From positions 3,411 through 67,410 of IMG/VR virus record IMGVR_UViG_3300012685_000002: a stretch of 64,000 bases of DNA, one strand, 5' to 3'. The notes under the pieces were generated by a model, which ran no database searches, had not been told where the DNA came from, and worked only from the letters and a program-made list of their open reading frames with translations. Numbering within the stretch: position 1 is the first letter of the stretch; each line of letters begins with the position of its first letter. Source of the stretch: a virus. The translations under genes and the position numbers were made by a program. Positions 5,271-23,860 of this stretch are shown piece after piece.

Positions 5271-5380
5271 TTGCCTCAGCAGGACTCGAACCTGCGACCT
5301 TCCATGTGTGACCGCGTGCAGTTGCTGTCCTCATGCAGGGCGGTATTGAATGGACGCTCTACCAACTGAGCTACGAGGCA
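5271..5380 (-). ncRNA. tRNA-like RNA with 44-nt structured anticodon loop (intron-containing tRNA or scaffold RNA)
   Basis: acceptor TGCCTCG/TGAGGCA, canonical D arm GCTC-AGTTGGTA-GAGC, anticodon stem TCCAT/ATGGA, T arm GCAGG-TTCGAGT-CCTGC. Confidence 0.8.
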
Positions 5381-9204: not shown

Positions 9205-9612
9205 TCAGCCTCCCCGTTGCCCAGGTGGATTTACAGGCCACTGCAGCCCCTGTGGAGCAATGGCAGCCATGAACTGCCCCAACTGCTGCGGCAGAATCTG
9301 CTGTTCCAGCACGGCGGCCATAGCACCTTCTAGCCAAGGATGCACCTTTCTCACCGGCCTAGCTTCCTCCGTGTGATTCATCATCTCGATTTGCATCCAC
9401 ACTTCTGCGGTCTTCAGCGGTTCTACGGTGATGGTGATGACGTTGGCTCCATCCCGTTCGATGTACATGTCGGCACCGCACGAGCAGCCGTATTCATACG
9501 GCTCTCGCCTGCCAGTGCGGACATCCCAGCCACCCCCTTGCCGCTTCCACTCATGCTGATGCGGTGGAGGCGCTGCAGGCGGTAGTGGAGCGGTATCCGG
9601 ATACTTGAGCAT
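9205..9612 (-). CDS. hypothetical protein (HxHxW...CxCG)
   Basis: ORF with GGAGG SD. Confidence 0.7.
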   Translation of the reverse strand: MLKYPDTAPLPPAAPPPHQHEWKRQGGGWDVRTGRREPYEYGCSCGADMYIERDGANVITITVEPLKTAEVWMQIEMMNHTEEARPVRKVHPWLEGAMAAVLEQQILPQQLGQFMAAIAPQGLQWPVNPPGQRGG

Positions 9613-9697
9613 GATTCCTCCCCGTGCTGCGCTCCAACCCCTTCACGCAGCACACTAACGTGGCCGTCCAACTTCGGAGTATTGCAGGGGTCCCACG

Positions 9698-9901
9698 CTA
9701 GATGTAGAGCCCCATGAGCTTGCGACAGTGAATCCCCAGCTGTTCCAGCGCCTTGCCATCTTGGCCGTAGCGCGCCCGATCCAGCAGCGCCTGCAGATTC
9801 CTGATGTACAGCGTCTTCGCTTTCTTCGGACTCTCGGCAGCGATGATCTCCTCAGGGAAGTCCATCAGCTGCACAGCGTACATCTTGCCTCCGCTCTTCA
9901 T
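9698..9901 (-). CDS. small hypothetical protein
   Basis: ORF coupled to upstream gene. Confidence 0.6.
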   Translation of the reverse strand: MKSGGKMYAVQLMDFPEEIIAAESPKKAKTLYIRNLQALLDRARYGQDGKALEQLGIHCRKLMGLYI

Positions 9902-14507: not shown

Positions 14508-16094
14508 TTATTGCCCTCTCGCCCACCGCAGCACCTTCTTCAATGCGGTAGCGTCAGTGGTGATCTTGTTATTCCAGATGTTCTTGGGGGCCCCAATGGC
14601 CTCGTACAAGAAGGTCTTCATCTGCGCAGGAGAGTATGGATTGAAGTGGTACGCCGTGAGCTTGCCCGTACCGCTACAACGTACACAAGGATGGAGCGTC
14701 GCTCCGATCTTCTTCCCGGGCTTCTTAGCGTAACCTGCGCAGCGCCAACACGCTTGGCGGCTGACTGTCCCGCCCCCGCAGCAATCACAGCGCTTCTGCC
14801 GAGCAAACGCTGCCACTCCTTCGCGTTGAATGTAGCGAAGGCCTTCACCTGCGCTGATCTCTTTCGCAGCTTCTGCGCGGGCTTGTAGGGTAGATAGACG
14901 ATGGTGCTGGAGCTCGACATTGATCCGTACCCCTTTCAGTTGCATCTCTACCGTTGCGGGGTAGAGAGATGTGGCGAGTTCGTACTGGGCTTGGCAGCCT
15001 GCGGCCTCCATCTCGGGGAGCATACAGGCAGCCAGCCAGCGCGTGACGTAGGCATCGTTCCCGTTCAAGATGAACATCTTCTCGTTGTGCTGGGGATCAT
15101 CCGGGAGTGGATAGTCCTTCCACCAGGGCAAGTTGAAGTAGAGGGAGGCGAGGAACGCGAGGCCCTTGCGGCTCATACGGCTGGGCGTAATCGCTTTATC
15201 TTCTTCGTCCGTGTCACCAGATCCCGCAAGGTCAGGCTCCAGAGCCCACCACATTTGTTGTGTGTCGTGATGATAGTGACGTACACGGAGATCATAGAAG
15301 AGTCGCATCGCTGGCACGTCGAACCCAGGTCCGTTGTGTCCAACTTTCGGCACGTCGGACAGAAGAATCTGCTTCCCGTATAGGTCAAAGTAGTGTCCCC
15401 ACATCGCTACATACGGTTGCATGTCGTCTCCGCAGAAGCCGCTGCAGAGCAGTGCGGTCATGTCCCACTTCGTCTCAATGTCCCACGCCACCAATCGAGA
15501 GTGAAGAATCTTCTCCACTTGGGCTTGGGTCTGGAGACGGAGGGGTACCGGGAACGCATCACGGGGTAGATCACCAGCAAGCCAGCGTCTACCTCGACGG
15601 AGATCCATTCCCAGTAGATAGCGCCCTGGCGTAGGCTTGCGGAGCACTCCAGCGGGATGGAGGGTGGTGAGCACCAGACCGTCCGGTGTGTCCCAGAAGT
15701 AACCACGACGGTCTTCGATACCTTTGGCTCCAAGGATACCCCGCCCGGCAGTCGGCCATCGAGTACCGAGACAGGCGTATGATGCCTCGTTGCCGAGCGT
15801 GATAGTAAGGCTAGGCCGGAGTCTTCGACGGAGCTGTTGAAGCTGCTCAACTCCTTCAAGTACTCTTCCGGGCTCGTGAGCTTTGAAGTCGTTGGCCGGG
15901 GGACGCCAGCCACAGACGTTGGCGATGTTGACATCTTGGCGTCGGAGTCCGACGCTTCCGAGGACGGTGTCGAGGAGTTCCCCGGCTCGTCCAATGAACG
16001 GTCGTCCTTCACGTTCTTCATCCTCCCCAGGATCACGTCCAATCAACAGGATGTGTCCCGGCTCTGGGTGGTTGATCTCTGGCGGTACGAACAT
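14508..16094 (-). CDS. DNA polymerase N-terminal subunit: uracil-DNA glycosylase-like domain + 3'-5' exonuclease + thumb with Zn finger
   Basis: GRDPGEDEEREGRPFIGRAG and TLHPAGVLR (UDG family 4/5-like); WDIET, HNGPGFD, NGND exonuclease motifs; CxxC pairs; FNPYSPAQ. Confidence 0.88.
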   Translation of the reverse strand: MFVPPEINHPEPGHILLIGRDPGEDEEREGRPFIGRAGELLDTVLGSVGLRRQDVNIANVCGWRPPANDFKAHEPGRVLEGVEQLQQLRRRLRPSLTITLGNEASYACLGTRWPTAGRGILGAKGIEDRRGYFWDTPDGLVLTTLHPAGVLRKPTPGRYLLGMDLRRGRRWLAGDLPRDAFPVPLRLQTQAQVEKILHSRLVAWDIETKWDMTALLCSGFCGDDMQPYVAMWGHYFDLYGKQILLSDVPKVGHNGPGFDVPAMRLFYDLRVRHYHHDTQQMWWALEPDLAGSGDTDEEDKAITPSRMSRKGLAFLASLYFNLPWWKDYPLPDDPQHNEKMFILNGNDAYVTRWLAACMLPEMEAAGCQAQYELATSLYPATVEMQLKGVRINVELQHHRLSTLQARAEAAKEISAGEGLRYIQREGVAAFARQKRCDCCGGGTVSRQACWRCAGYAKKPGKKIGATLHPCVRCSGTGKLTAYHFNPYSPAQMKTFLYEAIGAPKNIWNNKITTDATALKKVLRWARGQ

Positions 16095-16306
16095 TATGGC
16101 CGAAGGATGCGGCTCTCAGGCTGCTTCGCTGCCATGAGCATGCCTTGCACCGCGCTCGTCAAGATACCGACGGCGGCATAGAGGTTCGCGACGTTGGACT
16201 GGATACTGATCTGGCCATCCGGCTCCAGCGTCACCATGATCTGTGCCTTGGGTGGCGCGACCGGCCGCATGGGCGGCGGGGCGTCGAGGTTGATGACATC
16301 AGTCAT
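16094..16306 (-). CDS. small hypothetical protein
   Basis: coupled to downstream gene. Confidence 0.65.
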   Translation of the reverse strand: MTDVINLDAPPPMRPVAPPKAQIMVTLEPDGQISIQSNVANLYAAVGILTSAVQGMLMAAKQPESRILRP

Positions 16307-16806
16307 GAGCTGGCTCCGTCGGCTTGGGGGACGGCTTCGATGCTTCCCGGGCTTCCTGGAAGATCTCCGCCAAGGACTTGTTCAGGTGCTGCATGATCTG
16401 GAGCGCTCCCTCCGGGTCCATCACGGGGATCGTTCCCGTAAACTCCCGGAGCAGGATCGTCCGCTCCGTGTGCTTCTTCGACGGCGCGTGCCGCCGTAGC
16501 TGGATCTTGAGAGAGACCAACCACATAGTTCACATCCATGAGGAAGTTGTCGAGAGCGGCACCCATGGAGGCGTAGCCGTCCGCCTTCCCGATCACGGTG
16601 TCGGCACGGTTGCCGAGGGCCGCGTCGCGAATGAAGCGGATGATGGGCTTGAGCAGGGGCTCGATGAGAAGCAGACAGTTCCGACAGGGACGGCCCTTGG
16701 ACTCCGTGTGATCGCACAGGAAGCCTGCGCAGCCACGCCAGAACTGATTCCCCAAGTGCTCTTCGTCTGCAGCGGAACCGATACGTTGGTACTTGAGTGA
16801 CGACAT
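16303..16806 (-). CDS. hypothetical protein (overlapping alternative frame 16299..16526 also plausible)
   Basis: start MSSLKYQ; Cys-rich N-terminus. Confidence 0.5.
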   Translation of the reverse strand: MSSLKYQRIGSAADEEHLGNQFWRGCAGFLCDHTESKGRPCRNCLLLIEPLLKPIIRFIRDAALGNRADTVIGKADGYASMGAALDNFLMDVNYVVGLSQDPATAARAVEEAHGADDPAPGVYGNDPRDGPGGSAPDHAAPEQVLGGDLPGSPGSIEAVPQADGASS

Positions 16807-16986
16807 CCGTTGATGCTTCACAACTCTTGCCTCACAAGAGGGTCTGGGAAGGGTGGCAGACTGGTGGAGGCAGGCGGAGCGGGGGGCTTGCCTACCGTGC
16901 GTGTTGTATCTGCCCTTTCGCACAGTACAACCAGCGGGGCCGACTTCCCATCAGACGACGTACCGCCTTACGCGGTGTACTGTGAG

Positions 16987-17057
16987 TTGGAGAGGTAGGA
17001 GTCGGACCCACATTCGACGGTTCAAGGCCGTCTGTCCTGCCATTGGACGACTCTCCA
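16987..17057 (-). tRNA. tRNA-Gln(TTG)
   Basis: cloverleaf; GACGG-CCTTGAA-CCGTC; C33; T loop TCCGACT. Confidence 0.88.
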
Positions 17058-17060
17058 GTA

Positions 17061-17129
17061 CAGCGAGTCTAGGTGTCGATCCCAGGACGGCAAGTTTTGG
17101 AGACTCGCCTGTACGCCGGTACACTCGCT
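17061..17129 (-). tRNA. tRNA-Trp(CCA), truncated D arm
   Basis: acceptor AGCGAGT/ACTCGCT; loop CTCCAAA; D arm GTAC-CGGC-GTAC. Confidence 0.75.
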
Positions 17130-17132
17130 ACA

Positions 17133-17204
17133 TGCAGCAACTAGGAATCGAACCTAGTCTCTCACCCATGTCAAGGGTGCGCGTTCCCATCTCGCTCTTG
17201 CTGC
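17133..17204 (-). tRNA. tRNA-Val(GAC)
   Basis: CACCC-TTGACAT-GGGTG; canonical T arm. Confidence 0.88.
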
Positions 17205-17633
17205 TCAGTAATCGACGATCAACTTGCCCTTCAAGTGATCGAGCTCGTGGAGCAGGACTCTCGCCATCAGTCCTGTGGCGTGGATCTGTTCCCAGAGACC
17301 GTCCACGCTGCGGTAGTCCACGATCACTTCCAGCGACCGCTTCACCGGCTTCGTGATCCCAGGGAGGGAGAGACAGCCTTCCTCCTGTTTGTTCCGGTTG
17401 ATCGACTGGGCCCGGAGATGCGGGTTGATCAACGCCAGCTTCTGGTTCTCGATGTTCACCACGATCACTTGCACCGGCTCGCCCACCTGGATCGCGGAGA
17501 GTCCTACGCCGATCCCTTCTACTGTCTCGAACATGTCGTCGATCAATGTCCGAACCCCGTCGTCGATCTCCTTGAGCGGAAGAGACTTCCGACGGAGTGC
17601 CTTCATATCGAACTCTACGATGGTGCGCTTCAT
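17205..17633 (-). CDS. def: peptide deformylase
   Basis: GVGLSAIQVG, EGCLS and HELDH signature motifs. Confidence 0.95.
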   Translation of the reverse strand: MKRTIVEFDMKALRRKSLPLKEIDDGVRTLIDDMFETVEGIGVGLSAIQVGEPVQVIVVNIENQKLALINPHLRAQSINRNKQEEGCLSLPGITKPVKRSLEVIVDYRSVDGLWEQIHATGLMARVLLHELDHLKGKLIVDY

Positions 17634-17635
17634 AG

Positions 17636-17709
17636 TGGAGGCATGGGGATTCGAACCCCAGTCGCTAGTTTGCGGGACTAGCATAATGCCCAGACTATAC
17701 GATACCCCC
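17636..17709 (-). tRNA. tRNA-Ala(CGC)
   Basis: G3:U70 pair; CTAGT-CCCGCAA-ACTAG; C33. Confidence 0.9.
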
Positions 17710-17713
17710 AAGA

Positions 17714-17916
17714 TGTGTGTTCCGTAGCCGCGATTCTGTTTTATCCCGTCATCTGTCTAAGCCCCAACCCGGGGTTCTCTAGGGTCAAGCGATCCCCTGT
17801 TTGGGTTGCAGCATTGCCGTGGTGCGAACCGCTACCCGCACTGCTTGGCGTCCCACGTCCCCATTGCTGTCGCGAACTTCCTCAGGTCTCTCGACCCGCG
17901 ACGGGTCGAACACACA
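17714..17916 (-). ncRNA. rnpB: minimal RNase P RNA (catalytic domain; reduced S-domain; no P18)
   Basis: CR-I GAGGAAGTTCGCG, CR-IV TAGACAGATGAC, CR-V AACAGAATCGCGGCTA; P1, P2, P3, P4, P5, P7 and P15 pair by eye. Confidence 0.9.
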
Positions 17917-17917
17917 G

Positions 17918-17990
17918 TTGGGGGAGCAGGGGTCGAACCTGCACTCTCCGGGTTCAGAGCCCGGCGTGTTGCCAGTTACACCATCCCTCA
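17918..17990 (-). tRNA. tRNA-Gln(CTG)
   Basis: CCGGG-CTCTGAA-CCCGG. Confidence 0.92.
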
Positions 17991-17991
17991 G

Positions 17992-18063
17992 TCTGGCTAC
18001 CGGGAGTCGAACCCGGACTAAGAGGATCGGAGCCTCTCGTGATGTCCGTTTCACTATAGCCAA
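17992..18063 (-). tRNA. tRNA-Arg(CCG)
   Basis: AGAGG-CTCCGAT-CCTCT. Confidence 0.9.
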
Positions 18064-18064
18064 G

Positions 18065-18136
18065 TCCGGCTGGTGGGAGTCGAACCCACACTGAAAGGTT
18101 CGTAGCCTTTCCGTCTCTCCGTTAGCTTACAGCCGA
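18065..18136 (-). tRNA. tRNA-Arg(ACG)
   Basis: AAAGG-CTACGAA-CCTTT. Confidence 0.88.
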
Positions 18137-18137
18137 G

Positions 18138-18210
18138 TTGGACTCCACGGAATCGAACCGCAGCCTGCTGCTTTTCAGGCAGCCGTGCGCACCAGCTACA
18201 CCAGAATCCA
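18138..18210 (-). tRNA. tRNA-Phe(GAA)
   Basis: GCTGC-CTGAAAA-GCAGC. Confidence 0.9.
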
Positions 18211-18211
18211 G

Positions 18212-18280
18212 ACCGCTCGGAGGGACTCGAACCCTCATTGCTCCGGTAGAAACGGAGTCGCTGTCCATCAGCACGAGCAG
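18212..18280 (-). tRNA. tRNA-Arg(TCT), short D arm
   Basis: CTCCG-TTTCTAC-CGGAG. Confidence 0.82.
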
Positions 18281-18281
18281 A

Positions 18282-18536
18282 TTAGTGACGCTCTCGCCAC
18301 CAACAGCTGGTGGGGCGTCCGATCACTGCTTCCCCGTATACCTTCCGTGTGACGAAGCACACCATCACGGGGCTTCCTACTGCTTGCAACCAATACGCTT
18401 CGGTCCCGGTTCCATCATAGCTCCGTGGCCAGTAGGCACGTACAGGGCAGCTGGGGCTCGACACGTCTGGACAGTAGCCCATGTCCTTCACTGTCAGGCC
18501 CTGTGTCATCAGGAGAGCTGCGAGCCAGGTCCACAT
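18282..18536 (-). CDS. inter-tRNA hypothetical protein (84 aa)
   Basis: exactly fills the gap between tRNA-Asp and tRNA-Arg. Confidence 0.6.
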   Translation of the reverse strand: MWTWLAALLMTQGLTVKDMGYCPDVSSPSCPVRAYWPRSYDGTGTEAYWLQAVGSPVMVCFVTRKVYGEAVIGRPTSCWWRERH

Positions 18537-18537
18537 A

Positions 18538-18611
18538 CGCGACTGGAGGGATTCGAACCCTCGCTCTTCTCCGTGACAGGGAGATGGCTTGGACCGCTAG
18601 CCGACAATCGC
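18538..18611 (-). tRNA. tRNA-Asp(GTC)
   Basis: TCTCC-CTGTCAC-GGAGA; G73. Confidence 0.92.
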
Positions 18612-18641
18612 ATTGAGATAGTTTACTGTCATATCTCAGGA

Positions 18642-18734
18642 CTATGTTCTCTTCACTACTCCACAACGACACAACCAGTACCGACTTGCACCCCACGGAT
18701 AAATAATCCGTGTCCACCAATGTTTGTGTTTCAT
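18642..18734 (-). CDS. inter-tRNA micro-ORF (30 aa, MKHKHWW...CRCG)
   Basis: ATG 2 nt after tRNA-Ser discriminator; HxH..W..CxCG motif as in ORF 9205..9612. Confidence 0.5.
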   Translation of the reverse strand: MKHKHWWTRIIYPWGASRYWLCRCGVVKRT

Positions 18735-18736
18735 AG

Positions 18737-18819
18737 CGGAAGGTCAGAGACTCGAACTCTGGAACCCGTTAGGGCCAGCGGTTTTCGGGACCGTTTCCTC
18801 GACCGGCCGGACACCTTCC
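18737..18819 (-). tRNA. tRNA-Ser(CGA)
   Basis: loop CCCGAAA (C33); variable arm; G73. Confidence 0.85.
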
Positions 18820-18821
18820 AT

Positions 18822-18908
18822 TTATTGCGGCTGTGCGCTCGCTCCACCATGATCTTCAGGAGCATCTGACAACTCTCGCCATCTACGCACAGCTTCATCT
18901 GTTGTCAT
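18822..18908 (-). CDS. inter-tRNA micro-ORF (28 aa, MTTDEAVRRWRE...)
   Basis: fills gap between two tRNA-Ser genes. Confidence 0.45.
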   Translation of the reverse strand: MTTDEAVRRWRELSDAPEDHGGASAQPQ

Positions 18909-18909
18909 A

Positions 18910-19000
18910 CGGAGCGTCCAGGATTCGAACCTGGGTGGGGCCTCTGTGAGACTCCTCTGCGTTAGCACCGCAGCGCATTCAACCGCTCTGCCAACGCTCC
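18910..19000 (-). tRNA. tRNA-Ser(GCT)
   Basis: CTGCG-GTGCTAA-CGCAG; long variable arm. Confidence 0.92.
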
Positions 19001-19003
19001 AAG

Positions 19004-19083
19004 TCGTGGACCTAGGGTTCGAACCTAGCATGCCGAAGCGTCTGGTTTACAGCCAGGTGGGACACCGTAGTCCCTTGTCCACG
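19004..19083 (-). tRNA. tRNA-Tyr(GTA), C1:G72
   Basis: loop CTGTAAA; acceptor CGTGGAC/GTCCACG; short V arm. Confidence 0.87.
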
Positions 19084-19086
19084 AAG

Positions 19087-19158
19087 AGCCAAGTGCGTGA
19101 CTCGAACACGCGCTCCCGGTTTACGAAACCGGCGGTCTACCTGTTAACCTAACGAGGC
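19087..19158 (-). tRNA. tRNA-Thr(CGT)
   Basis: CCGGT-TTCGTAA-ACCGG; acceptor mismatches at pairs 4 and 5. Confidence 0.85.
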
Positions 19159-19310
19159 GTAAGCTTCTCGAACTTCTTCAGCACATCCTTGAGCTTCTTC
19201 AGCCGGACTCCCTCTGCCACCTGCACGGAGAGTCCATTTCGAAGCGCGTTGCCATAGGCCACGCTGGTCTCTAGCACCAGCTCTCGGATCTGCTGCATCG
19301 TCAACTCCAT
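19149..19310 (-). CDS. inter-tRNA small protein (53 aa, MELTMQQIRELV...)
   Basis: ATG 2 nt after tRNA-Asn; phage-like codon usage; stop overlaps tRNA-Thr 5' end. Confidence 0.6.
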   Translation of the reverse strand: MELTMQQIRELVLETSVAYGNALRNGLSVQVAEGVRLKKLKDVLKKFEKLTPR

Positions 19311-19312
19311 AA

Positions 19313-19384
19313 CTGGGACCGGAGGATTCGAACCTCCATCTCAGCGGGTAACAGCCGCGTGACTTGCCATTCGCCCAGATCCCA
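19313..19384 (-). tRNA. tRNA-Asn(GTT)
   Basis: loop CTGTTAC; G73. Confidence 0.87.
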
Positions 19385-19385
19385 A

Positions 19386-19460
19386 TGCAGTCAGGAGGAT
19401 TCGAACCTCCACTTGTACCACCTTCTCAGGATGGCCCGTATACCGTTCCGGCATGACTGC
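19386..19460 (-). tRNA. tRNA-Leu(GAG), no long variable arm
   Basis: CCATC-CTGAGAA-GGTGG; 7-nt variable region. Confidence 0.85.
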
Positions 19461-19463
19461 GAG

Positions 19464-19537
19464 TCGTCGGTCGAGGATTCGAACCCCGTGTCCCCGGTTT
19501 ATCAGACCGGTACTCCTACCATTCGAGCTGCCCGACG
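19464..19537 (-). tRNA. tRNA-Ile(GAT)
   Basis: CCGGT-CTGATAA-ACCGG. Confidence 0.88.
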
Positions 19538-19540
19538 AAG

Positions 19541-19613
19541 TTGGCCGCGTGGGCAATGATCCCACAACCTATCGGTTAAGAGCCGATTGCTCTGCCAGTT
19601 GAGCTAGCGACCA
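19541..19613 (-). tRNA. tRNA-Lys(CTT)
   Basis: ATCGG-CTCTTAA-CCGAT; atypical T loop ATCATTG. Confidence 0.88.
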
Positions 19614-19614
19614 G

Positions 19615-19698
19615 TGCACCTGGGAGGAGTTGAACCTCCATGACCTTGCGGTCACTGGTTTCTGAGACCAGTCTGTCTGCCAGTTCCAGCACAGATGC
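19615..19698 (-). tRNA. tRNA-Leu(CAG)
   Basis: CTGGT-CTCAGAA-ACCAG; V arm TGACC-GCAA-GGTCA. Confidence 0.92.
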
Positions 19699-19768
19699 AT
19701 GATCGGTGGGCCGCTAAGCCCTACTCCCTGCCGATCCAGGTAGACGGTAATGAGCCGTCGGGCCCGAG

Positions 19769-19839
19769 AGCTAAGAGCAGGAATCGAACCTGCGCTAGCT
19801 GCTTACCAAGCAGCTGGTCTACCACTAACCTATCGAAGC
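19769..19839 (-). tRNA. tRNA-Thr(GGT)
   Basis: GCTGC-TTGGTAA-GCAGC; acceptor mismatches at pairs 4 and 5. Confidence 0.87.
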
Positions 19840-19842
19840 AAG

Positions 19843-19915
19843 AGCCAGAGGACGGAGTTGAACCGTCACGATCCGCATTACAAGTGCGGCTTGGCATCCC
19901 GATAGCCGCTCTGAC
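19843..19915 (-). tRNA. tRNA-Thr(TGT)
   Basis: CCGCA-CTTGTAA-TGCGG; atypical D arm. Confidence 0.8.
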
Positions 19916-19964
19916 GTGAAGCCCACCGATCCGCAGACCAGGGGCTAGTCTCTTCTATGTACAG

Positions 19965-20037
19965 TGCTGCTCGAAGGACTCGAACCTTCAGTCAGCTGGG
20001 TTTGAGCCAGCCCCGTCTACCGTTGCGGCAGAGCAGC
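19965..20037 (-). tRNA. tRNA-Leu(CAA), no long variable arm
   Basis: GCTGG-CTCAAAC-CCAGC; 5-nt variable loop. Confidence 0.86.
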
Positions 20038-20044
20038 AATGCTA

Positions 20045-20185
20045 CTACTTCTTCCCAGCGTGCTTGAAGTACTCGACCTGCCGTTCCCGCTTCACTGCGG
20101 CGGCCTTGCTCCCAGGCTTCGAGAGGGGCTTGCCGGTCTTCTTGCTCTTCAGAACGAACTTCCCGCCGGTCTTCACGATGGTCAT
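20045..20185 (-). CDS. small highly basic protein (46 aa, ...AVKRERQVEYFKH)
   Basis: AAGGGGA SD, tandem TAG stops, phage-typical codon usage. Confidence 0.75.
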   Translation of the reverse strand: MTIVKTGGKFVLKSKKTGKPLSKPGSKAAAVKRERQVEYFKHAGKK

Positions 20186-20207
20186 ACATTCCCCTTGCAC
20201 AGGTGAG

Positions 20208-20280
20208 TCAGGAGCAGGGGATTCGCACCCCTGTCTGGACCTTGAGAGGGTCCTGTCCTAGGCTCCTAGACGAGCCCCTG
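20208..20280 (-). tRNA. tRNA-Glu(CTC)
   Basis: GGACC-CTCTCAA-GGTCC; T loop TGCGAAT. Confidence 0.86.
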
Positions 20281-20281
20281 A

Positions 20282-20355
20282 TGGCAGAGGAGGGAGTCGA
20301 ACCCTCGGATTCCAGTTTATGAGACTGGCGCAGGAGCCGTGCCTGCTCCTCTGCT
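20282..20355 (-). tRNA. tRNA-Met/fMet/Ile2(CAT)
   Basis: CCAGT-CTCATAA-ACTGG; 1:72 mismatch. Confidence 0.82.
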
Positions 20356-20359
20356 CTAG

Positions 20360-20431
20360 TTGGCCGACTGGGACTCGAACCCAGACCTTACCGCTTAAAA
20401 GGCGGATGTGCTGCGTTCACACTATCGACCA
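20360..20431 (-). tRNA. tRNA-Lys(TTT)
   Basis: loop CTTTTAA; canonical T arm. Confidence 0.88.
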
Positions 20432-20432
20432 G

Positions 20433-20504
20433 TTGGAAATCAGGGGATCGAACCCTGGGCCTCTCGGATGTGAGCCGAGCGCTCTACCGCTGAGCTAATC
20501 TCCA
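20433..20504 (-). tRNA. tRNA-Val(CAC)
   Basis: CTCGG-CTCACAT-CCGAG. Confidence 0.92.
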
Positions 20505-20505
20505 G

Positions 20506-20577
20506 AGCATCTGGCGGGTGCTGCCCCCGCTGCTTCCACCTTGGCAAGGTGGCAGTCTGCTGTTGACTTACAGATGC
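20506..20577 (-). tRNA. tRNA-Gly(GCC)
   Basis: CCACC-TTGCCAA-GGTGG; U73; T loop GGCAGCA. Confidence 0.85.
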
Positions 20578-20669
20578 AGTACCCGCGTTTAATGAGGTAG
20601 CGGGGATCTCAGGACGAGAACCAGGGGCACCATCGCGAAGCTGTTTACCGTGAGTCGCGATCTCACTCA

Positions 20670-20740
20670 AGCACCAGGCGGGAATCGGACCCGCGTGTCA
20701 AGTTTGGAAGACTTGCGCGCAGCCACTACGCCACTGATGC
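20670..20740 (-). tRNA. tRNA-Gly(TCC)
   Basis: CAAGT-CTTCCAA-ACTTG; U73. Confidence 0.86.
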
Positions 20741-20743
20741 ACA

Positions 20744-20815
20744 TGGGAGAGGAGGGTTCCGACCCCTCTTCTGGAGTTTGAAGGACTCCTGTCCTAGCCA
20801 GTAGACGAATCTCCC
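20744..20815 (-). tRNA. tRNA-Glu(TTC)
   Basis: GGAGT-CCTTCAA-ACTCC; C33; T loop GTCGGAA. Confidence 0.82.
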
Positions 20816-20817
20816 GG

Positions 20818-20888
20818 GGTGCTGTACGGGGTACGATCCCGTTCCTGAGCCTTCACAGGGCTCAATGCTTCCATTACACCACCAGCAC
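20818..20888 (-). tRNA. tRNA-His(GTG)
   Basis: GAGCC-CTGTGAA-GGCTC; C73; no encoded G-1. Confidence 0.85.
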
Positions 20889-20890
20889 AG

Positions 20891-20962
20891 ACAGTAGGGT
20901 GGGGATCGAACCCACGTTGCTGGGTTTGCAGTCCAGCGCCTGAACCACTCGGCTACCTACTG
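20891..20962 (-). tRNA. tRNA-Cys(GCA)
   Basis: loop CTGCAAA; U73. Confidence 0.9.
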
Positions 20963-20965
20963 AAG

Positions 20966-21037
20966 TCAGTGATGCAGGAGTCGCACCTGCCTGATCGTGC
21001 TCCCAAAGCACGCGCCTGTCTGCTAGGCTAATCACTG
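20966..21037 (-). tRNA. tRNA-Pro(TGG)
   Basis: CGTGC-TTTGGGA-GCACG. Confidence 0.88.
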
Positions 21038-21206
21038 AAGGTGACCACTTCATTCGTAGGCTGGTCACCCACCCACGCCAGTTCGTTTCGGACGACTGGC
21101 TATCCGATAGAGGAGGAGGAGAGGAGGCGTTGCCGCCCGCTTCTGCCGGTGAGTTACCCCATCCAGCATGTTGTATATCTGCCCGGGGCAGAGTCTCCGT
21201 GTCGAG
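21038..21206 (-). ncRNA. putative structured ncRNA with CCUCCU-rich tract
   Basis: several hairpins between two tRNA-Pro genes; no convincing ORF. Confidence 0.45.
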
Positions 21207-21282
21207 TCGGGGCTGCTGGAATCGAACCAGCCTGATGCCTCGCTTCCGAAGCGAGTGGCCCGAGCCTTGAGCCCGAACCCCG
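21207..21282 (-). tRNA. tRNA-Pro(CGG)
   Basis: CTCGC-TTCGGAA-GCGAG. Confidence 0.86.
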
Positions 21283-21295
21283 AGGTGATGGACCC

Positions 21296-21324
21296 ATAAT
21301 ATCTATGGGTCCACCAGTTGTCAA
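21296..21324 (-). promoter_or_regulatory. sigma70-type promoter of the tRNA/rnpB operon
   Basis: TTGACA-N17-TATTAT; overlapped by inverted repeat TGGACCCATA-N5-TATGGGTCCA. Confidence 0.85.
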
Positions 21325-21327
21325 GGC

Positions 21328-21942
21328 CTACCGAGTCCGCAGGGAAGGCCCTGCTTCCTCGACTTCTGCCGGGCTCGGAGCCACCTCGACTCCGTTCACG
21401 CCCTTGAACGCGATGACGTTGGCCACCGTCTCCTTCTTGGCCGAGCCGTCAGGGTTCTTGCGCGTCTTGGAGTCGTAGCTCCGCTGCTCGACCGTGAACA
21501 GGACTTCCCGGTTCGTGAACACCCCACCCGAGAGGGCGGTGATGAACTCGTCCAGGTCCACGTCCACGTTGCCCGTGGCGTCGAACGACGCGGCGCCCAG
21601 GGCCAGACCGAGCTGCGAGAACAGCGTGGCCGACTGCCGGATGCCGTAGGGGATAGAGTCATCCCACTCCGTCACATCCACGATGGAGATCGGCGTCTGT
21701 CCTGGCTTCGGGGGACGGACGATGTCGAGCCGCTGCATGAGCGGACGGGCACCGACCTGTGGCCCCTCAACCGGGGTGATCTCCTTGAAGGTCAGCGTCA
21801 GCCGAGCGCTGTCCTTCTTGTCCGGCGCGTTCTTCGTGTCCGAGGCGTACCACTCCTGCTTGGCCTCGATCAGCTTCCCCACGAATGTACCCTCGGGGAA
21901 TGGAGGAGACTTCCCTTCTGCGACGTGCGATGGGATCTTCAT
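21328..21942 (-). CDS. putative single-stranded DNA-binding protein
   Basis: PFPEGTFVGKL N-terminus; OB-fold-like pattern; follows Sak4-like ATPase. Confidence 0.65.
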   Translation of the reverse strand: MKIPSHVAEGKSPPFPEGTFVGKLIEAKQEWYASDTKNAPDKKDSARLTLTFKEITPVEGPQVGARPLMQRLDIVRPPKPGQTPISIVDVTEWDDSIPYGIRQSATLFSQLGLALGAASFDATGNVDVDLDEFITALSGGVFTNREVLFTVEQRSYDSKTRKNPDGSAKKETVANVIAFKGVNGVEVAPSPAEVEEAGPSLRTR

Positions 21943-21968
21943 GTTGCCTCACTGAGAGTTAGAAGTGA

Positions 21969-22859
21969 TCACTTCTTCGCTGCCTGCGACTGCCGAATGA
22001 GCCCCAGAAGCGCCTTGAAGTCATTCGGGATGAACTGCATGGGCGGCAGCGGCCCAGACAGCTTCGTGTGCCGTTCGTTATCGGGTCGGACCTGGAGCAT
22101 GTACTGGACATCGAAGCTCTTGGCCGTAGCCGAGAGTCCCATGTTCGCCTTGATCTGCATGTCCGTGTAGACCACGGTCGGGAACTGGGCCCCGAGCTTC
22201 CGACGGTACGAGCCACGGATCATCGGGAGCACATCCCCTTCGTACTCGACACCCTTGGCGGCATGGTCGGCGCTCTCCTTCTTCACGCCACCGTCCGAGG
22301 TGTCGTCCTTCGGCGCCTGGATGTGCCAGGTCACGGCCACATGCTTCCGCTTCTTGGCGACCTGGGTCAAGGAGATCAGATCCTTGATGCCTTCATCGAG
22401 CAGATTAGCCAGAGTCTCATACGGTAGCCAACGAGACTTGCCATCCATGTCGGCGGGTGTGCCCACGCCATGGGGAGCGAGCGCCGCGTGCCACGCCATT
22501 TCAGCGAGCTCAGTTCCTGAATCAAGAATGACGGCTTCAAACTGTTCGTCTTCCTCTCTGAGCCAGCGGACCAGCTTCCGGAACTCGGGAAAGCCATTGG
22601 CCACGAAGGTCTTGAGTGACGGTGCCCAGTCCTTGTCTTCGATCAGGACATTGGGAATGGTGAGCTGCTTGTACTTCCAGCTCTCGATCTCCTTCGCCAG
22701 CGTGGCGATCAGGAGCGTCTTCTCTGGGCCCACGTACTCGGCCATGGAGCCGCAGAGAGTACTCTTGCCGGTGCCCTGCGGACCTTCGATGACGTACGCC
22801 ACGTACTCTGAGGCGGCCGCCTTGCGAATGTCTGGGGTGTACTTCGTGACGAGTGTCAT
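21969..22859 (-). CDS. Sak4-like (AAA_24) ATPase / ssDNA annealing protein
   Basis: GPQGTGKST, VILDSGTEL, VAVTWH; context with nuclease and SSB. Confidence 0.8.
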   Translation of the reverse strand: MTLVTKYTPDIRKAAASEYVAYVIEGPQGTGKSTLCGSMAEYVGPEKTLLIATLAKEIESWKYKQLTIPNVLIEDKDWAPSLKTFVANGFPEFRKLVRWLREEDEQFEAVILDSGTELAEMAWHAALAPHGVGTPADMDGKSRWLPYETLANLLDEGIKDLISLTQVAKKRKHVAVTWHIQAPKDDTSDGGVKKESADHAAKGVEYEGDVLPMIRGSYRRKLGAQFPTVVYTDMQIKANMGLSATAKSFDVQYMLQVRPDNERHTKLSGPLPPMQFIPNDFKALLGLIRQSQAAKK

Positions 22860-23860
22860 AGGTCCAAGAAGCTCCGATCCACGGTGGTGTAGGCTGTGTG
22901 CATAGTGGCCTCACGAATGATCGGCGTCTGCGCACAGAGTTCGGCGAAGGTGCAGCCCCCGCACATCTTGCCCGTGTGCTGGGGGTAGTAGCCCTGCTGC
23001 TCGTAGTAGTCGAGCGCCTTGCGCCAGTGATACTGGTTCTTGATCGCTTCGTCCAGGTGGCTCGGGGAGTAGAGCATCGGGCCGAAGCGGCCGAAGCGCT
23101 CTCCCTTGAAGTCACTCAGGACCGCCCGCTCGCCCATGTAGATCCCGTTGATCAGGGCTCCGTTCAGCTGGATCTTCGTCATCCGGCTGAGCATCGCGCA
23201 GTAGCCCCGGAGCTGGTTCGAGAACCGGAACTGGTCGAAGTAGTAGGTCGAGAGATAGCTGTTCGTCGATTTGTGGTCCCACAGGTAGATCGCTCCGCCA
23301 GACTCCACGGGCAGGTCTGGCTTGCCAGAGTAGATGAAGGGGTGGCCCACCACATCCTCGAAGTCCATGATGATCTTGGACTCCCCCAGGATGACGTTGC
23401 CGTTGGGGGCGATACGGAAGACGGCCCCTACCACCTTCGAGAGATCGAGCTCCTCGAACTGGACTTCCAGCGGCTTGAAGGTATCCCGCCGCTTGGCGTA
23501 GTCCATGTAGTTCTTGAGCACAGTCTCCAGGAAGCCCAGGTTCAGGTGGCCGAACTTGGTCGAGGGCGGCGCGAAGTCGCGGCCCTTGCCCCACACGCGC
23601 GCGAGTTCCACGAGCGCGAGATCGCCGTCCACGCCCGCATAGAAGAGGGAGAGGGCGGCGTGGAGGGCCCCACCGGCCTTCATGGCGTAGCTCTCGTCCT
23701 TGGCCACGAGCCCATAGCGGATGGCGTACTCCCCGTTGCGGGGGCAGCGGGCGATCTGGGTGGCCGTGGTGGCGTCCCAGTTCGTCTCTACTCCCTTCTC
23801 TAGGAGCTCTCTATTGGGATAGAGAGGAGAGAAGTACTCGACTTCCTTGATGTCACTCAT
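22856..23860 (-). CDS. Cas4-like PD-(D/E)XK exonuclease
   Basis: CPR, GGALH, GKPDL, DHKST, QLRGY and CGGCTFAELC motifs. Confidence 0.85.
   Translation of the reverse strand: MSDIKEVEYFSPLYPNRELLEKGVETNWDATTATQIARCPRNGEYAIRYGLVAKDESYAMKAGGALHAALSLFYAGVDGDLALVELARVWGKGRDFAPPSTKFGHLNLGFLETVLKNYMDYAKRRDTFKPLEVQFEELDLSKVVGAVFRIAPNGNVILGESKIIMDFEDVVGHPFIYSGKPDLPVESGGAIYLWDHKSTNSYLSTYYFDQFRFSNQLRGYCAMLSRMTKIQLNGALINGIYMGERAVLSDFKGERFGRFGPMLYSPSHLDEAIKNQYHWRKALDYYEQQGYYPQHTGKMCGGCTFAELCAQTPIIREATMHTAYTTVDRSFLDL

Follow-up and report, generated by a model that had tools for sequence, protein, structure and literature searches.

A predicted RNase P ribozyme gene of a virus-borne family in the 32-tRNA array of a soil phage

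Introduction

In the literature that we searched, RNase P belongs to cells and organelles, with one RNase P-like RNA from a poxvirus. Here we describe a mini RNase P RNA gene (below, the element) that lies within an array of tRNA genes in viral DNA. The DNA analyzed is a stretch of 64,000 nt (the window, whose numbering we use unless a locus is named) from IMG/VR virus record IMGVR_UViG_3300012685_000002.

The element has the same catalytic plan as bacterial type A RNase P RNA (rnpB; M1 of Escherichia coli; Rfam RF00010), with P1-P2-P3, P4, P5, P6 and P15/L15/P16. The two also have in common the GGU of L15, an AGATGA string like that of J18/2, and the bulged U of P4. In contrast, the element is about 203 nt long compared to roughly 370-400 nt for the bacterial RNA, its specificity (S) domain is reduced, P18 is absent, and the carrier virus has no rnpA. 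Its best placement in Rfam is an archaeal model, below threshold. J3/4 seems to be one nucleotide shorter than in E. coli, judged by what we take to be the E. coli numbering.

Other RNase P RNAs also have little or no S-domain. These include type T RNA of Pyrobaculum and its relatives, described in part of PMC13462272 as a "reduced RNase P", and ribozymes made of the E. coli C-domain; a passage of PMC5839562 reports that the C-domain alone cleaves with reduced efficiency. However, type T RNA is archaeal and works with archaeal proteins, and the C-domain constructs are man-made, whereas the element is natural, bacterial-like and viral, and is found amid its presumed substrates. Camelpox virus also encodes a relative of RNase P RNA, the function of which is called unclear in a passage of PMC3001073, but this is a eukaryotic virus, its RNA is related to nuclear H1 RNA, and there is no tRNA array.

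Phages T4, T5, KVP40 and the mycobacteriophage Bxz1 likewise have clusters of tRNA genes on one strand. These phages have fewer tRNAs per kb than the lineage described here, which has 32 tRNAs in 67.4 kb and 30 in 50.9 kb, and the ribozyme family is absent from them. Phage tRNA clusters have been explained by codon supply and by escape from host defenses that cleave tRNA (passages of PMC10264068, PMC11555353 and PMC11464382). The camelpox passage was the only viral case in the literature searched, in which (supplementary tables being outside its reach) no account of an RNase P RNA encoded by a phage came up. The term "RNase P" was absent from the phage-tRNA papers that we checked, and the terms "phage" and "virus" were absent from the P finder paper. 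Phage RNase P ribozyme genes seem to be undescribed in print.

We found that a near-consensus sigma-70 promoter heads an array of 32 tRNA genes in the window, and that a true homologue of RNase P RNA lies within this array, as does a true peptide deformylase gene (def).

Results

The element has the conserved core and helices of RNase P RNA

The element (17714-17916, minus strand) begins 1 nt after a tRNA-Gln gene and ends 4 nt before a tRNA-Ala gene. It matched the Rfam model RNaseP_arch (RF00373) over the whole model (positions 1-288) with 48.9 bits and an E-value of 1.6e-11. We also made a model, R2, from 15 other phage elements, excluding the window and its two nearest relatives. R2 gave 116.6 bits (E 1.9e-34, positions 1-195) for the element, its single hit in the 64 kb. 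Read by eye, the element has helices P1-P6 and P15/P16, an L15 loop with GGU, a stub of the S-domain, and no P18. P4, with its bulged U, forms from the CR-I and CR-V strings with 7 of 7 pairs. The ~45 nt between the strands of P5 make a short P7-like helix of 4-5 bp and one hairpin, and there is no P7-P14 specificity domain. P5 and P16 of the window were poorly aligned by the model and were placed by hand.

Covariation was measured in an alignment of 47 distinct family sequences. In this alignment, 94.6% of the cells were paired, compared to 33-43% when the partners were slid by 1-3 columns, and 46 of the 52 pairs varied on both sides. Every pair of P1-P2-P3, P5, P15 and P16 changed on both sides, with 92-98% of cells paired. 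P4 was 98.2% paired with two covarying positions, and the P6 pseudoknot was 85% paired with 6 of 7 pairs covarying. Because both P4 and P6 cross other helices and were left out of the model, the alignment was not fitted to them. P6 also covaries within a sub-lineage made up of the window and its two nearest relatives, L032 and L016, as read from the alignment. The strings of the catalytic core (P4 bulged U, CR-IV, CR-V) and the L15 string GGGTT were invariant in six seed sequences, and 15 further sequences showed no variation in the CR-I string, the CR-V string or the L15 GGGT.

An earlier note on this DNA (the original prediction) had called the element rnpB, and the Rfam match, the R2 score and the covariation all agree with that call. 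We infer that it is a genuine RNase P RNA homologue, of a virus-borne family lacking the S-domain, and predict that it is catalytic. None of 13 other family members tested reached the Rfam thresholds, so routine genome annotation misses the family.

The RNA might instead not cut at all. It could soak up host RnpA, or another RNase P partner, and so starve maturation of host tRNAs, or it could be a captured rnpB that is decaying and persists in the array. The missing S-domain and P18, the score below the Rfam threshold and the failure to find a phage RnpA would all suit such an RNA, and a passage of PMC3001073 raises the possibility that the camelpox RNA is a decoy. But a relic would not retain this degree of pairing, two-sided change in 46 of 52 pairs, and two pseudoknot helices that lie outside the model. 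Nor does a protein sponge have an evident need for a P4 with a bulged U, the CR-IV and CR-V strings and the GGU of L15, all invariant in the six seeds. The invariance of CR-I, CR-V and the L15 GGGT across the 15 further sequences, and the position of the gene amid its presumed substrates, on their strand, in every locus that holds tRNAs, also speak against a decoy or relic, which we regard as unlikely.

The family is associated with phage tRNA arrays

Loci labelled L and a number are viral (or cellular) stretches of at most 15 kb, and the figures below on how ribozyme and tRNA arrays occur together are therefore lower bounds. A core-string pattern had 11 matches in viral contigs. Seven of these were homologues by eye, and a model search found the same seven. 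A looser pattern of 17 nt matched at least 114 further viral loci. Using R1, a model built from the hand-drawn structure, and counting full or near-full matches of at least 40 bits as positive, we found at least 54 positive viral loci (47 among the 114 listed for the 17-nt pattern, plus the seven from the core-string pattern). The same 17-nt pattern in cellular genomes gave one strong and one weak hit among 120 loci. The family thus appears to be found mainly in viral contigs. The strong cellular hit (L192:317-536) is on a 3,053-bp contig of a metagenome-assembled genome of the candidate phylum Roizmanbacteria, and may be a misbinned phage fragment.

The association of the mini rnpB with tRNA arrays, which the original prediction had put forward for comparison across phages, was borne out. 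A tRNA gene was present in 48 of the 54 positive loci; it was within 1 kb of the ribozyme in 41 and within 300 nt in 33, always on the ribozyme's strand. In contrast, among 62 controls that were fetched by the patterns but negative with the model, none had a tRNA within 1 kb and two had any tRNA. This association is not circular, as the patterns used to fetch the loci include no part of a tRNA. The loci L008, L011 and L012 have a mini RNase P RNA without a nearby tRNA. L011 also has a tmRNA-like gene (1924-2341) about 2.6 kb from the mini RNase P RNA, which scored 62.9 bits, above threshold, with the model for permuted tmRNA.

We also sampled in the reverse direction, using two adjacent T-arm strings. 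This gave 118 viral stretches, of which 117 were new and 56 had at least 10 tRNAs. R2 found the family in one of the 117 new tandem-tRNA loci; the re-fetched locus (L022) was already positive. It is clear that the ribozyme is nearly always in arrays and that few arrays hold one.

Of the largest sampled arrays, 23 were scanned with Rfam, seven at E-value thresholds and 16 at gathering thresholds. One of them, in L265 (from a 77,292-bp viral contig), has a type A RNase P RNA (9376-9703; RF00010, 263.7 bits, above threshold). It is near full size and has a tRNA on either side, and its stretch has 36 tRNAs in all. This is either a phage with a full rnpB or a cellular tRNA island classed as viral. 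Besides L265, the scan of these arrays found no RNase P RNA above threshold. Other structured RNAs were seen in randomly sampled phage tRNA arrays, GOLLD with 270 bits and manA with 62-64 bits (L280:5010-5434; L325:6780-6961; L351:3459-3661).

A cultured phage also carries a family member. Stenotrophomonas phage vB_SmaS-DLP_6 (KU682439.2, 105775-106017; L133:4806-5048) has an unannotated mini RNase P RNA of 119-130 bits, between a gene for a hypothetical protein and tRNA-Arg(CCG), within a tRNA cluster. A 595-kb uncultured phage carries one as well. A blastn search with the window element found the conserved 3' part in these two phages and otherwise short, chance-like pieces; when two other family members were used as queries, DLP_6 itself was the only match.

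A near-consensus promoter heads 32 closely packed tRNA genes

The block is on the minus strand. The -35 hexamer starts at 21324 and the discriminator base of the last tRNA is at 16987, which are the ends and the strand given by the original prediction. The block contains the promoter, 32 tRNA genes on the same strand, the 203-nt RNase P RNA, def, a few small open reading frames (ORFs) and four unexplained spacers (169, 165, 70 and 49 nt). Its features are listed below; tRNAs without a comment were called by ARAGORN with default settings.

21296-21324, minus: sigma-70-type promoter TTGACA-N17-TATTAT; the -10 ends 13 nt before the first tRNA
21289-21313, no strand: 10-bp inverted repeat spanning the -10 hexamer, a possible operator; each arm single in the genome
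21207-21282, minus: tRNA-Pro(cgg); ARAGORN, 7/7 acceptor pairs; in Rfam only a weak tRNA-Sec match
21038-21206, minus: 169-nt spacer; no Rfam match at E<=1, fold z -2.1 (mononucleotide shuffles), no relative found
20966-21037, minus: tRNA-Pro(tgg); ARAGORN default and Rfam
20891-20962, minus: tRNA-Cys(gca)
20818-20888, minus: tRNA-His(gtg); trailer CC
20744-20815, minus: tRNA-Glu(ttc); ARAGORN at relaxed threshold only, Rfam 35.9 bits
20670-20740, minus: tRNA-Gly(tcc)
20505-20669, minus: 165-nt spacer; no Rfam match, fold z -1.2
20433-20504, minus: tRNA-Val(cac)
20360-20431, minus: tRNA-Lys(ttt)
20283-20354, minus: tRNA-Met(cat), elongator-like, the sole CAT tRNA; G1:C72, without the three anticodon-stem G:C pairs
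20208-20280, minus: tRNA-Glu(ctc); ARAGORN, 7/7 acceptor pairs, no Rfam match
20045-20200, minus: small Lys-rich ORF; likely start ATG at 20185, after a purine-rich run like a ribosome-binding site; no Pfam or PHROG family
19965-20037, minus: tRNA-Leu(caa)
19843-19915, minus: tRNA-Thr(tgt); ARAGORN, 7/7 acceptor pairs
19769-19839, minus: tRNA-Thr(ggt); 92% identical to the L032 tRNA in the same slot
19615-19698, minus: tRNA-Leu(cag)
19541-19613, minus: tRNA-Lys(ctt)
19464-19537, minus: tRNA-Ile(gat)
19386-19460, minus: tRNA-Leu(gag)
19312-19385, minus: tRNA-Asn(gtt)
19149-19310, minus: 53-codon ORF; starts 1 nt past the discriminator base of tRNA-Asn; no family
19087-19158, minus: tRNA-Thr(cgt)
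19004-19083, minus: tRNA-Tyr(gta); ARAGORN, 7/7 acceptor pairs
18909-19001, minus: tRNA-Ser(gct)
18737-18819, minus: tRNA-Ser(cga); ARAGORN, 7/7 acceptor pairs
18537-18612, minus: tRNA-Asp(gtc)
18282-18536, minus: 84-codon ORF; its ATG abuts the discriminator base of tRNA-Asp; no family
18212-18280, minus: tRNA-Arg(tct); ARAGORN, 7/7 acceptor pairs
18138-18210, minus: tRNA-Phe(gaa)
18065-18136, minus: tRNA-Arg(acg)
17992-18063, minus: tRNA-Arg(ccg)
17918-17990, minus: tRNA-Gln(ctg)
17714-17916, minus: mini RNase P RNA, 203 nt; RF00373 48.9 bits, R2 116.6 bits
17636-17709, minus: tRNA-Ala(cgc), with a G3:U70 pair read from the sequence
17205-17633, minus: def, short peptide deformylase of 142 aa; PF01327 E 4e-38, phrog_2890
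17133-17204, minus: tRNA-Val(gac)
17060-17130, minus: tRNA-Trp(cca); ARAGORN at relaxed threshold only, 7/7 acceptor pairs, same slot in L032 and L016
16987-17057, minus: tRNA-Gln(ttg), the last gene of the array; no terminator-like site after it on the same strand

ARAGORN found 30 tRNAs with default settings, all on the minus strand from 21282 to 16987, and 32 at a relaxed threshold, which added tRNA-Trp(cca) and tRNA-Glu(ttc). The original prediction had counted 33 cloverleafs. A still looser ARAGORN run did give a 33rd, but this was an antisense "tRNA-Ser" overlapping tRNA-Pro(cgg), which we rejected as an artefact, and the array stands at 32. The Rfam tRNA model recovered 25 of these, and seven are supported by ARAGORN alone (tRNA-Trp by the relaxed threshold only). 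All 20 amino acids are represented and none of the 32 tRNAs encodes CCA, both as originally predicted. A further match to the Rfam tRNA model (52.7 bits over 110 nt; 5271-5380, minus strand) is outside the array. It was not called by ARAGORN and resembles a tRNA with a long insertion.

Many of the genes were described in the original prediction as separated by 1-3 nt. Counted from the discriminator base, 20 of the 31 junctions are indeed no longer than 5 nt, but the remaining 11 are 49-431 nt. The trailer has a C at position 74 (C74) in 23 tRNAs and CU in 22, compared to an overall C content of 27% in the array. At six junctions the spacer is just one C, and each of these precedes a tRNA that begins with U. 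Base 1 is G in 13 of the 32 tRNAs, U in 12 (as a U1:A72 pair) and C in seven; in the 28 carrier arrays compared below it is G in 405 of 595. In tRNA-His, base -1 is U and G-1, the usual identity element for HisRS, is not encoded; the discriminator is C73, and the next tRNA follows immediately after the CC trailer. The T-loop motif TTCRA is present in 24 of 32 tRNAs in the window compared to 486 of 547 in other carrier arrays (0 of 18 in L057). We considered a link between loss of the S-domain and odd T loops, but this difference is too small to build on.

The promoter named in the original prediction, TTGACA-N17-TATTAT, is present at 21324-21296 (minus strand) and matches 11 of 12 consensus positions. 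It is the sole promoter-like site within 15500-23000. The exact string occurs once in the window and in none of 100 shuffles, and the whole genome has five near-consensus sites, this one included. The related loci L016 and L032 have sites with 11 of 12 matches 134-135 nt ahead of their first tRNA. A scan of 15500-23000 revealed no terminator-like site on the array strand before or after the array.

Most carrier arrays encode CCA and are loosely spaced

We compared 28 other distinct carrier arrays with at least 10 tRNAs each. In 24 of these, CCA is encoded by nearly all of the tRNAs, and at most one junction measures 5 nt or less; over all 28 arrays, 482 of 595 tRNAs encode CCA. Only the window, L032, L016 and L077 (which overlaps L016) are wholly without CCA and tightly packed; CCA is encoded by one of 12 tRNAs in L061 and six of 10 in L116. 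In the relatives L032, L016 and L077 CCA is never encoded, 14-20 tRNAs have a C-U trailer, and 12-13 junctions are short (13 of 29 in L032 and 12 of 27 in L016).

The original prediction viewed the block as a self-sufficient tRNA factory that carries a ribozyme because, with spacers of 1-3 nt, one cut can define the ends of two tRNAs. The short junctions and C74 trailers of the window fit this explanation, and the same traits recur in the syntenic arrays of L032 and L016. At the six single-C junctions, the end left by one cut would be N73-C74, to which a CCA-adding enzyme could add without prior trimming. As a general rule, however, the explanation is contradicted, since most carriers encode CCA and are loosely spaced, and the family was present in only one of the 117 new tandem-tRNA loci. 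Even within the window, eleven junctions are long. Judging from these comparisons, tight packing is a derived feature of the sub-lineage and not the reason that the family exists.

The array was also called self-contained, and in this it fell short. There were no matches to RnpA (PF00825) in the complete genome or in any of five other carrier records, so a host protein would be needed. Pfam searches for a class II CCA-adding enzyme (PF01743) also gave no match in the genome, and none was found in two CCA-less relatives. The sole CAT tRNA we take to be an elongator with no initiator features, because it has G1:C72 and lacks a run of three G:C pairs in the anticodon stem.

As to codons, a count with crude ORF-based gene calling and standard wobble rules gave ~79% of phage codons as readable by the phage tRNAs, among them the codon preferred for most amino acids. 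The codons GCC, GCT, GCA, GGC, GGT, CCC, CCT, TCC, TCT, TCA, CTA, TTA, GTA and ATA have no phage tRNA, and these include the phage's commonest codons for Ala (GCC) and Gly (GGC). Coverage of about four fifths of the codons, with most of the preferred ones, points to a replacement or insurance set rather than a supplement for rare codons. With no RnpA, CCA-adding enzyme or initiator-type tRNA, and with all GCC, GCT, GCA, GGC, GGT and some Pro, Ser, Leu, Val and Ile codons unread, we think it quite improbable that the block is a self-sufficient factory whose spacing accounts for the ribozyme.

The array order is conserved in a lineage of soil phages

When tRNA orders are compared, the window has a subsequence of 27 in common with L032 and one of 26 in common with L016. 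In shuffles the mean was ~10 and the maximum 15, and none of 2000 reached the observed values. All three arrays have the RNase P RNA at the same place in this order, and ten other arrays were at chance in tRNA order. L032 lies in a complete 50,876-bp contig with 30 tRNAs, and its head protein is 21% identical to that of the window (E 1.8e-4). Transfer RNAs in matching slots are about 70-92% identical. The window thus represents a lineage of soil phages of middling genome size that have a fixed ~30-tRNA array, in which CCA was lost and the spacers were compacted.

Matching slots in the window and in L032 or L016 differ in the first base of several anticodons (Ala cgc/tgc, Ser cga/tga, Leu cag/tag, Val cac/tac, Arg ccg/tcg). 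The anticodons starting with C are in the window, which is 58-61% G+C, and those starting with T are in the relatives of lower G+C. The Pro(cgg) of the window is 86% identical to the Pro(tgg) of L016. The order suggests anticodon switches; sequence identity is above background in only some of the slots.

It could be argued that the array and its rnpB are a passenger, a mobile tRNA island that moves between phages with little benefit, its order being kept by recent transfer and not by selection. The common order despite head proteins that are only 21% identical (E about 1e-4) would fit, and the full-size bacterial type A RNA of L265 (263.7 bits) hints at capture from cells. But the divergence and differing anticodons of tRNAs in matching slots indicate that the order outlived much sequence change, the covariation points to long purifying selection on the ribozyme, and the phage sequence was unchanged in two soil samples (see below). 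Such a passenger is very improbable in our view.

def, small ORFs and spacers

The def gene of the original prediction does encode a real peptide deformylase. The product matched PF01327 with 130.9 bits (cut-off 22.8; E 4e-38) and the phage deformylase family phrog_2890 over its full length (E 4.7e-34). Among solved structures the best match was 8s1x (E 2.7e-23). Because this alignment covers residues 6-147 of the 168 in 8s1x, the product is a C-terminally truncated short form. The motifs G-x-G-L-[SA]-A-x-Q, EGCLS and HE-x-DH, which we take to be the catalytic motifs of peptide deformylase, are all present in the alignment to 8s1x. The product also matched the solved phage enzymes 3uwa (E 2.1e-15) and 5mtc (E 2.1e-12).

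Phage peptide deformylases are already well known (passages of PMC3660681 and PMC5591237), and those of cyanophage S-SSM7 and Vibrio phage Vp16 have the same short form, ending just past the third motif. Unlike these, def of the window is in a tRNA array. The tRNA-Ala discriminator base and the ATG of def are 2 nt apart, and tRNA-Val begins directly after the def stop codon. We did not find def in the syntenic arrays of L032 and L016, indicating that it is peculiar to the window; homologues were found in four distant viral loci, with 28-40% identity.

Two other ORFs of the array (18282-18536 and 19149-19310) begin 0-1 nt after a tRNA. Together with def they recall the tRNA punctuation of mitochondria, in which mRNAs are likewise directly flanked by tRNAs, a resemblance seen in the sequence only. 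In contrast to that pattern, ORF 20045-20200 has an ordinary purine-rich leader that resembles a ribosome-binding site. It had a tblastn match (48% over 46 aa, E 7e-7) in a viral locus with a mini RNase P RNA (L041:9379-9513). None of the five small ORFs of the array (84, 53 and ~46-51 codons, and two tiny ones), nor ORF 16303-16923, matched a Pfam or PHROG family. The long spacers had no Rfam match, and the folds of spacers and ORFs were unremarkable except for 19159-19311 (z -4.3, with mononucleotide shuffles only).

The phage genome

The window comes from a viral record of 67,410 bp, of which it spans bases 3411-67410. This record has direct terminal repeats, and CheckV puts its completeness at 100%. 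Genes for terminase, portal and major head proteins are present, and the source appears to be a complete, lytic-looking soil phage of 67.4 kb. Neither megablast of the array nor tblastn of the portal protein had a match among GenBank phages, indicating no close relative there. Four contigs from a second soil metagenome cover most of the 64-kb stretch with 0 differences, DNA that attests presence only. The original prediction was right that the tRNA set is large for such a phage, with 32 tRNAs in 67,410 bp, yet this is a trait of the lineage, given the 30 tRNAs in the same order on the related 50,876-bp contig.

Discussion

We consider it likely that the block works as one RNA-rich transcription unit, in which the phage ribozyme is an accessory that adds to, or secures, 5' processing during the phage tRNA burst. 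Host RNA polymerase would make one long precursor from the sigma-70 promoter. RNase P would then cut at the 5' end of every tRNA; this could be the host enzyme, the phage RNA with host RnpA, or both. The same enzyme would free the 3' side of the ribozyme, by the cut at tRNA-Ala 4 nt downstream, and would also produce the ends of the def mRNA. The short junctions and the trailers beginning with C mean that each cut would leave a tail of 0-5 nt that usually starts with C74. Host exonucleases and the host CCA-adding enzyme would complete the 3' end of the upstream tRNA. At the six single-C junctions the N73-C74 ends would be ready for that enzyme, and the others would need trimming by 1-4 nt.

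In passages of PMC1874595, G293 and G292 of L15 in bacterial RNase P are described as pairing with C74 and C75, and RNase P as able to cut CCA-less precursors less efficiently. According to the same passages, CCA blocks RNase Z, and a long 5' leader hinders it. The 3' side of L15 is retained as GGGTT in the window, L032 and L016, and the substrates in the window have C74 in 23 of 32 and never CCA; a retained C74 could still dock at this L15. Pellegrini et al. are said to have found, in 2003, that the first C of CCA accounts for most of the inhibition of RNase Z. C74 should then disfavor RNase Z, which fits a route in which RNase P acts first and exonucleases and the CCA-adding enzyme follow.

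Several points weigh against the ribozyme as an accessory in a single transcription unit. The RF00373 score of the element (48.9) is below the gathering score of 84. The S-domain, which in bacterial RNase P grips the tRNA elbow, is absent, and activity may be weak or need an extra partner. Few arrays carry the ribozyme (one of 117 new loci, and none of the four genomes of T4, T5, Bxz1 and KVP40), so any benefit is not general. With no flanking terminator, read-through into or out of the array is possible and a single promoter may be an incomplete picture; L032 also has an additional near-consensus promoter inside its array. The codon coverage comes from crude gene calls. Lastly, we infer the single precursor, the cut sites and the activity of the ribozyme from sequence.

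What the phage would gain from a ribozyme of its own is a guess: extra, or protected, 5' processing during the burst of phage tRNA. The ribozyme would not be a necessity of tRNA arrays. The def product would add deformylation capacity.

A broader notion, which we find possible but on balance doubtful, is that there is a phage clade of active RNase P ribozymes without an S-domain in tRNA operons, and that in the lineage of the window the operon was rebuilt around the enzyme. CCA would have been dropped and C74 kept, usually with a U after it, the spacers reduced to 1-3 nt, and mRNAs such as that of def placed flush between tRNAs. Nearly every RNA end, of tRNAs and leaderless mRNAs alike, would then come from cutting by RNase P and finishing by the CCA-adding enzyme of the host. 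If true, this would be a counterpart in a bacterial virus of mitochondrial tRNA punctuation, driven by a viral ribozyme.

Because a cultured carrier exists in DLP_6, the question is testable at the bench. Virus-borne RNase P RNAs of bacterial type and half the usual size would be new material for work on the minimal size of a natural RNase P, on the role of the specificity domain, and on how phages take over the tRNA supply. The window adds a lineage of 50-67-kb phages in which ~30 tRNA genes keep a fixed order and have a C-U trailer but no CCA, along with a deformylase mRNA that has a tRNA on each side. This lineage would be a natural experiment in the compaction of a tRNA operon.

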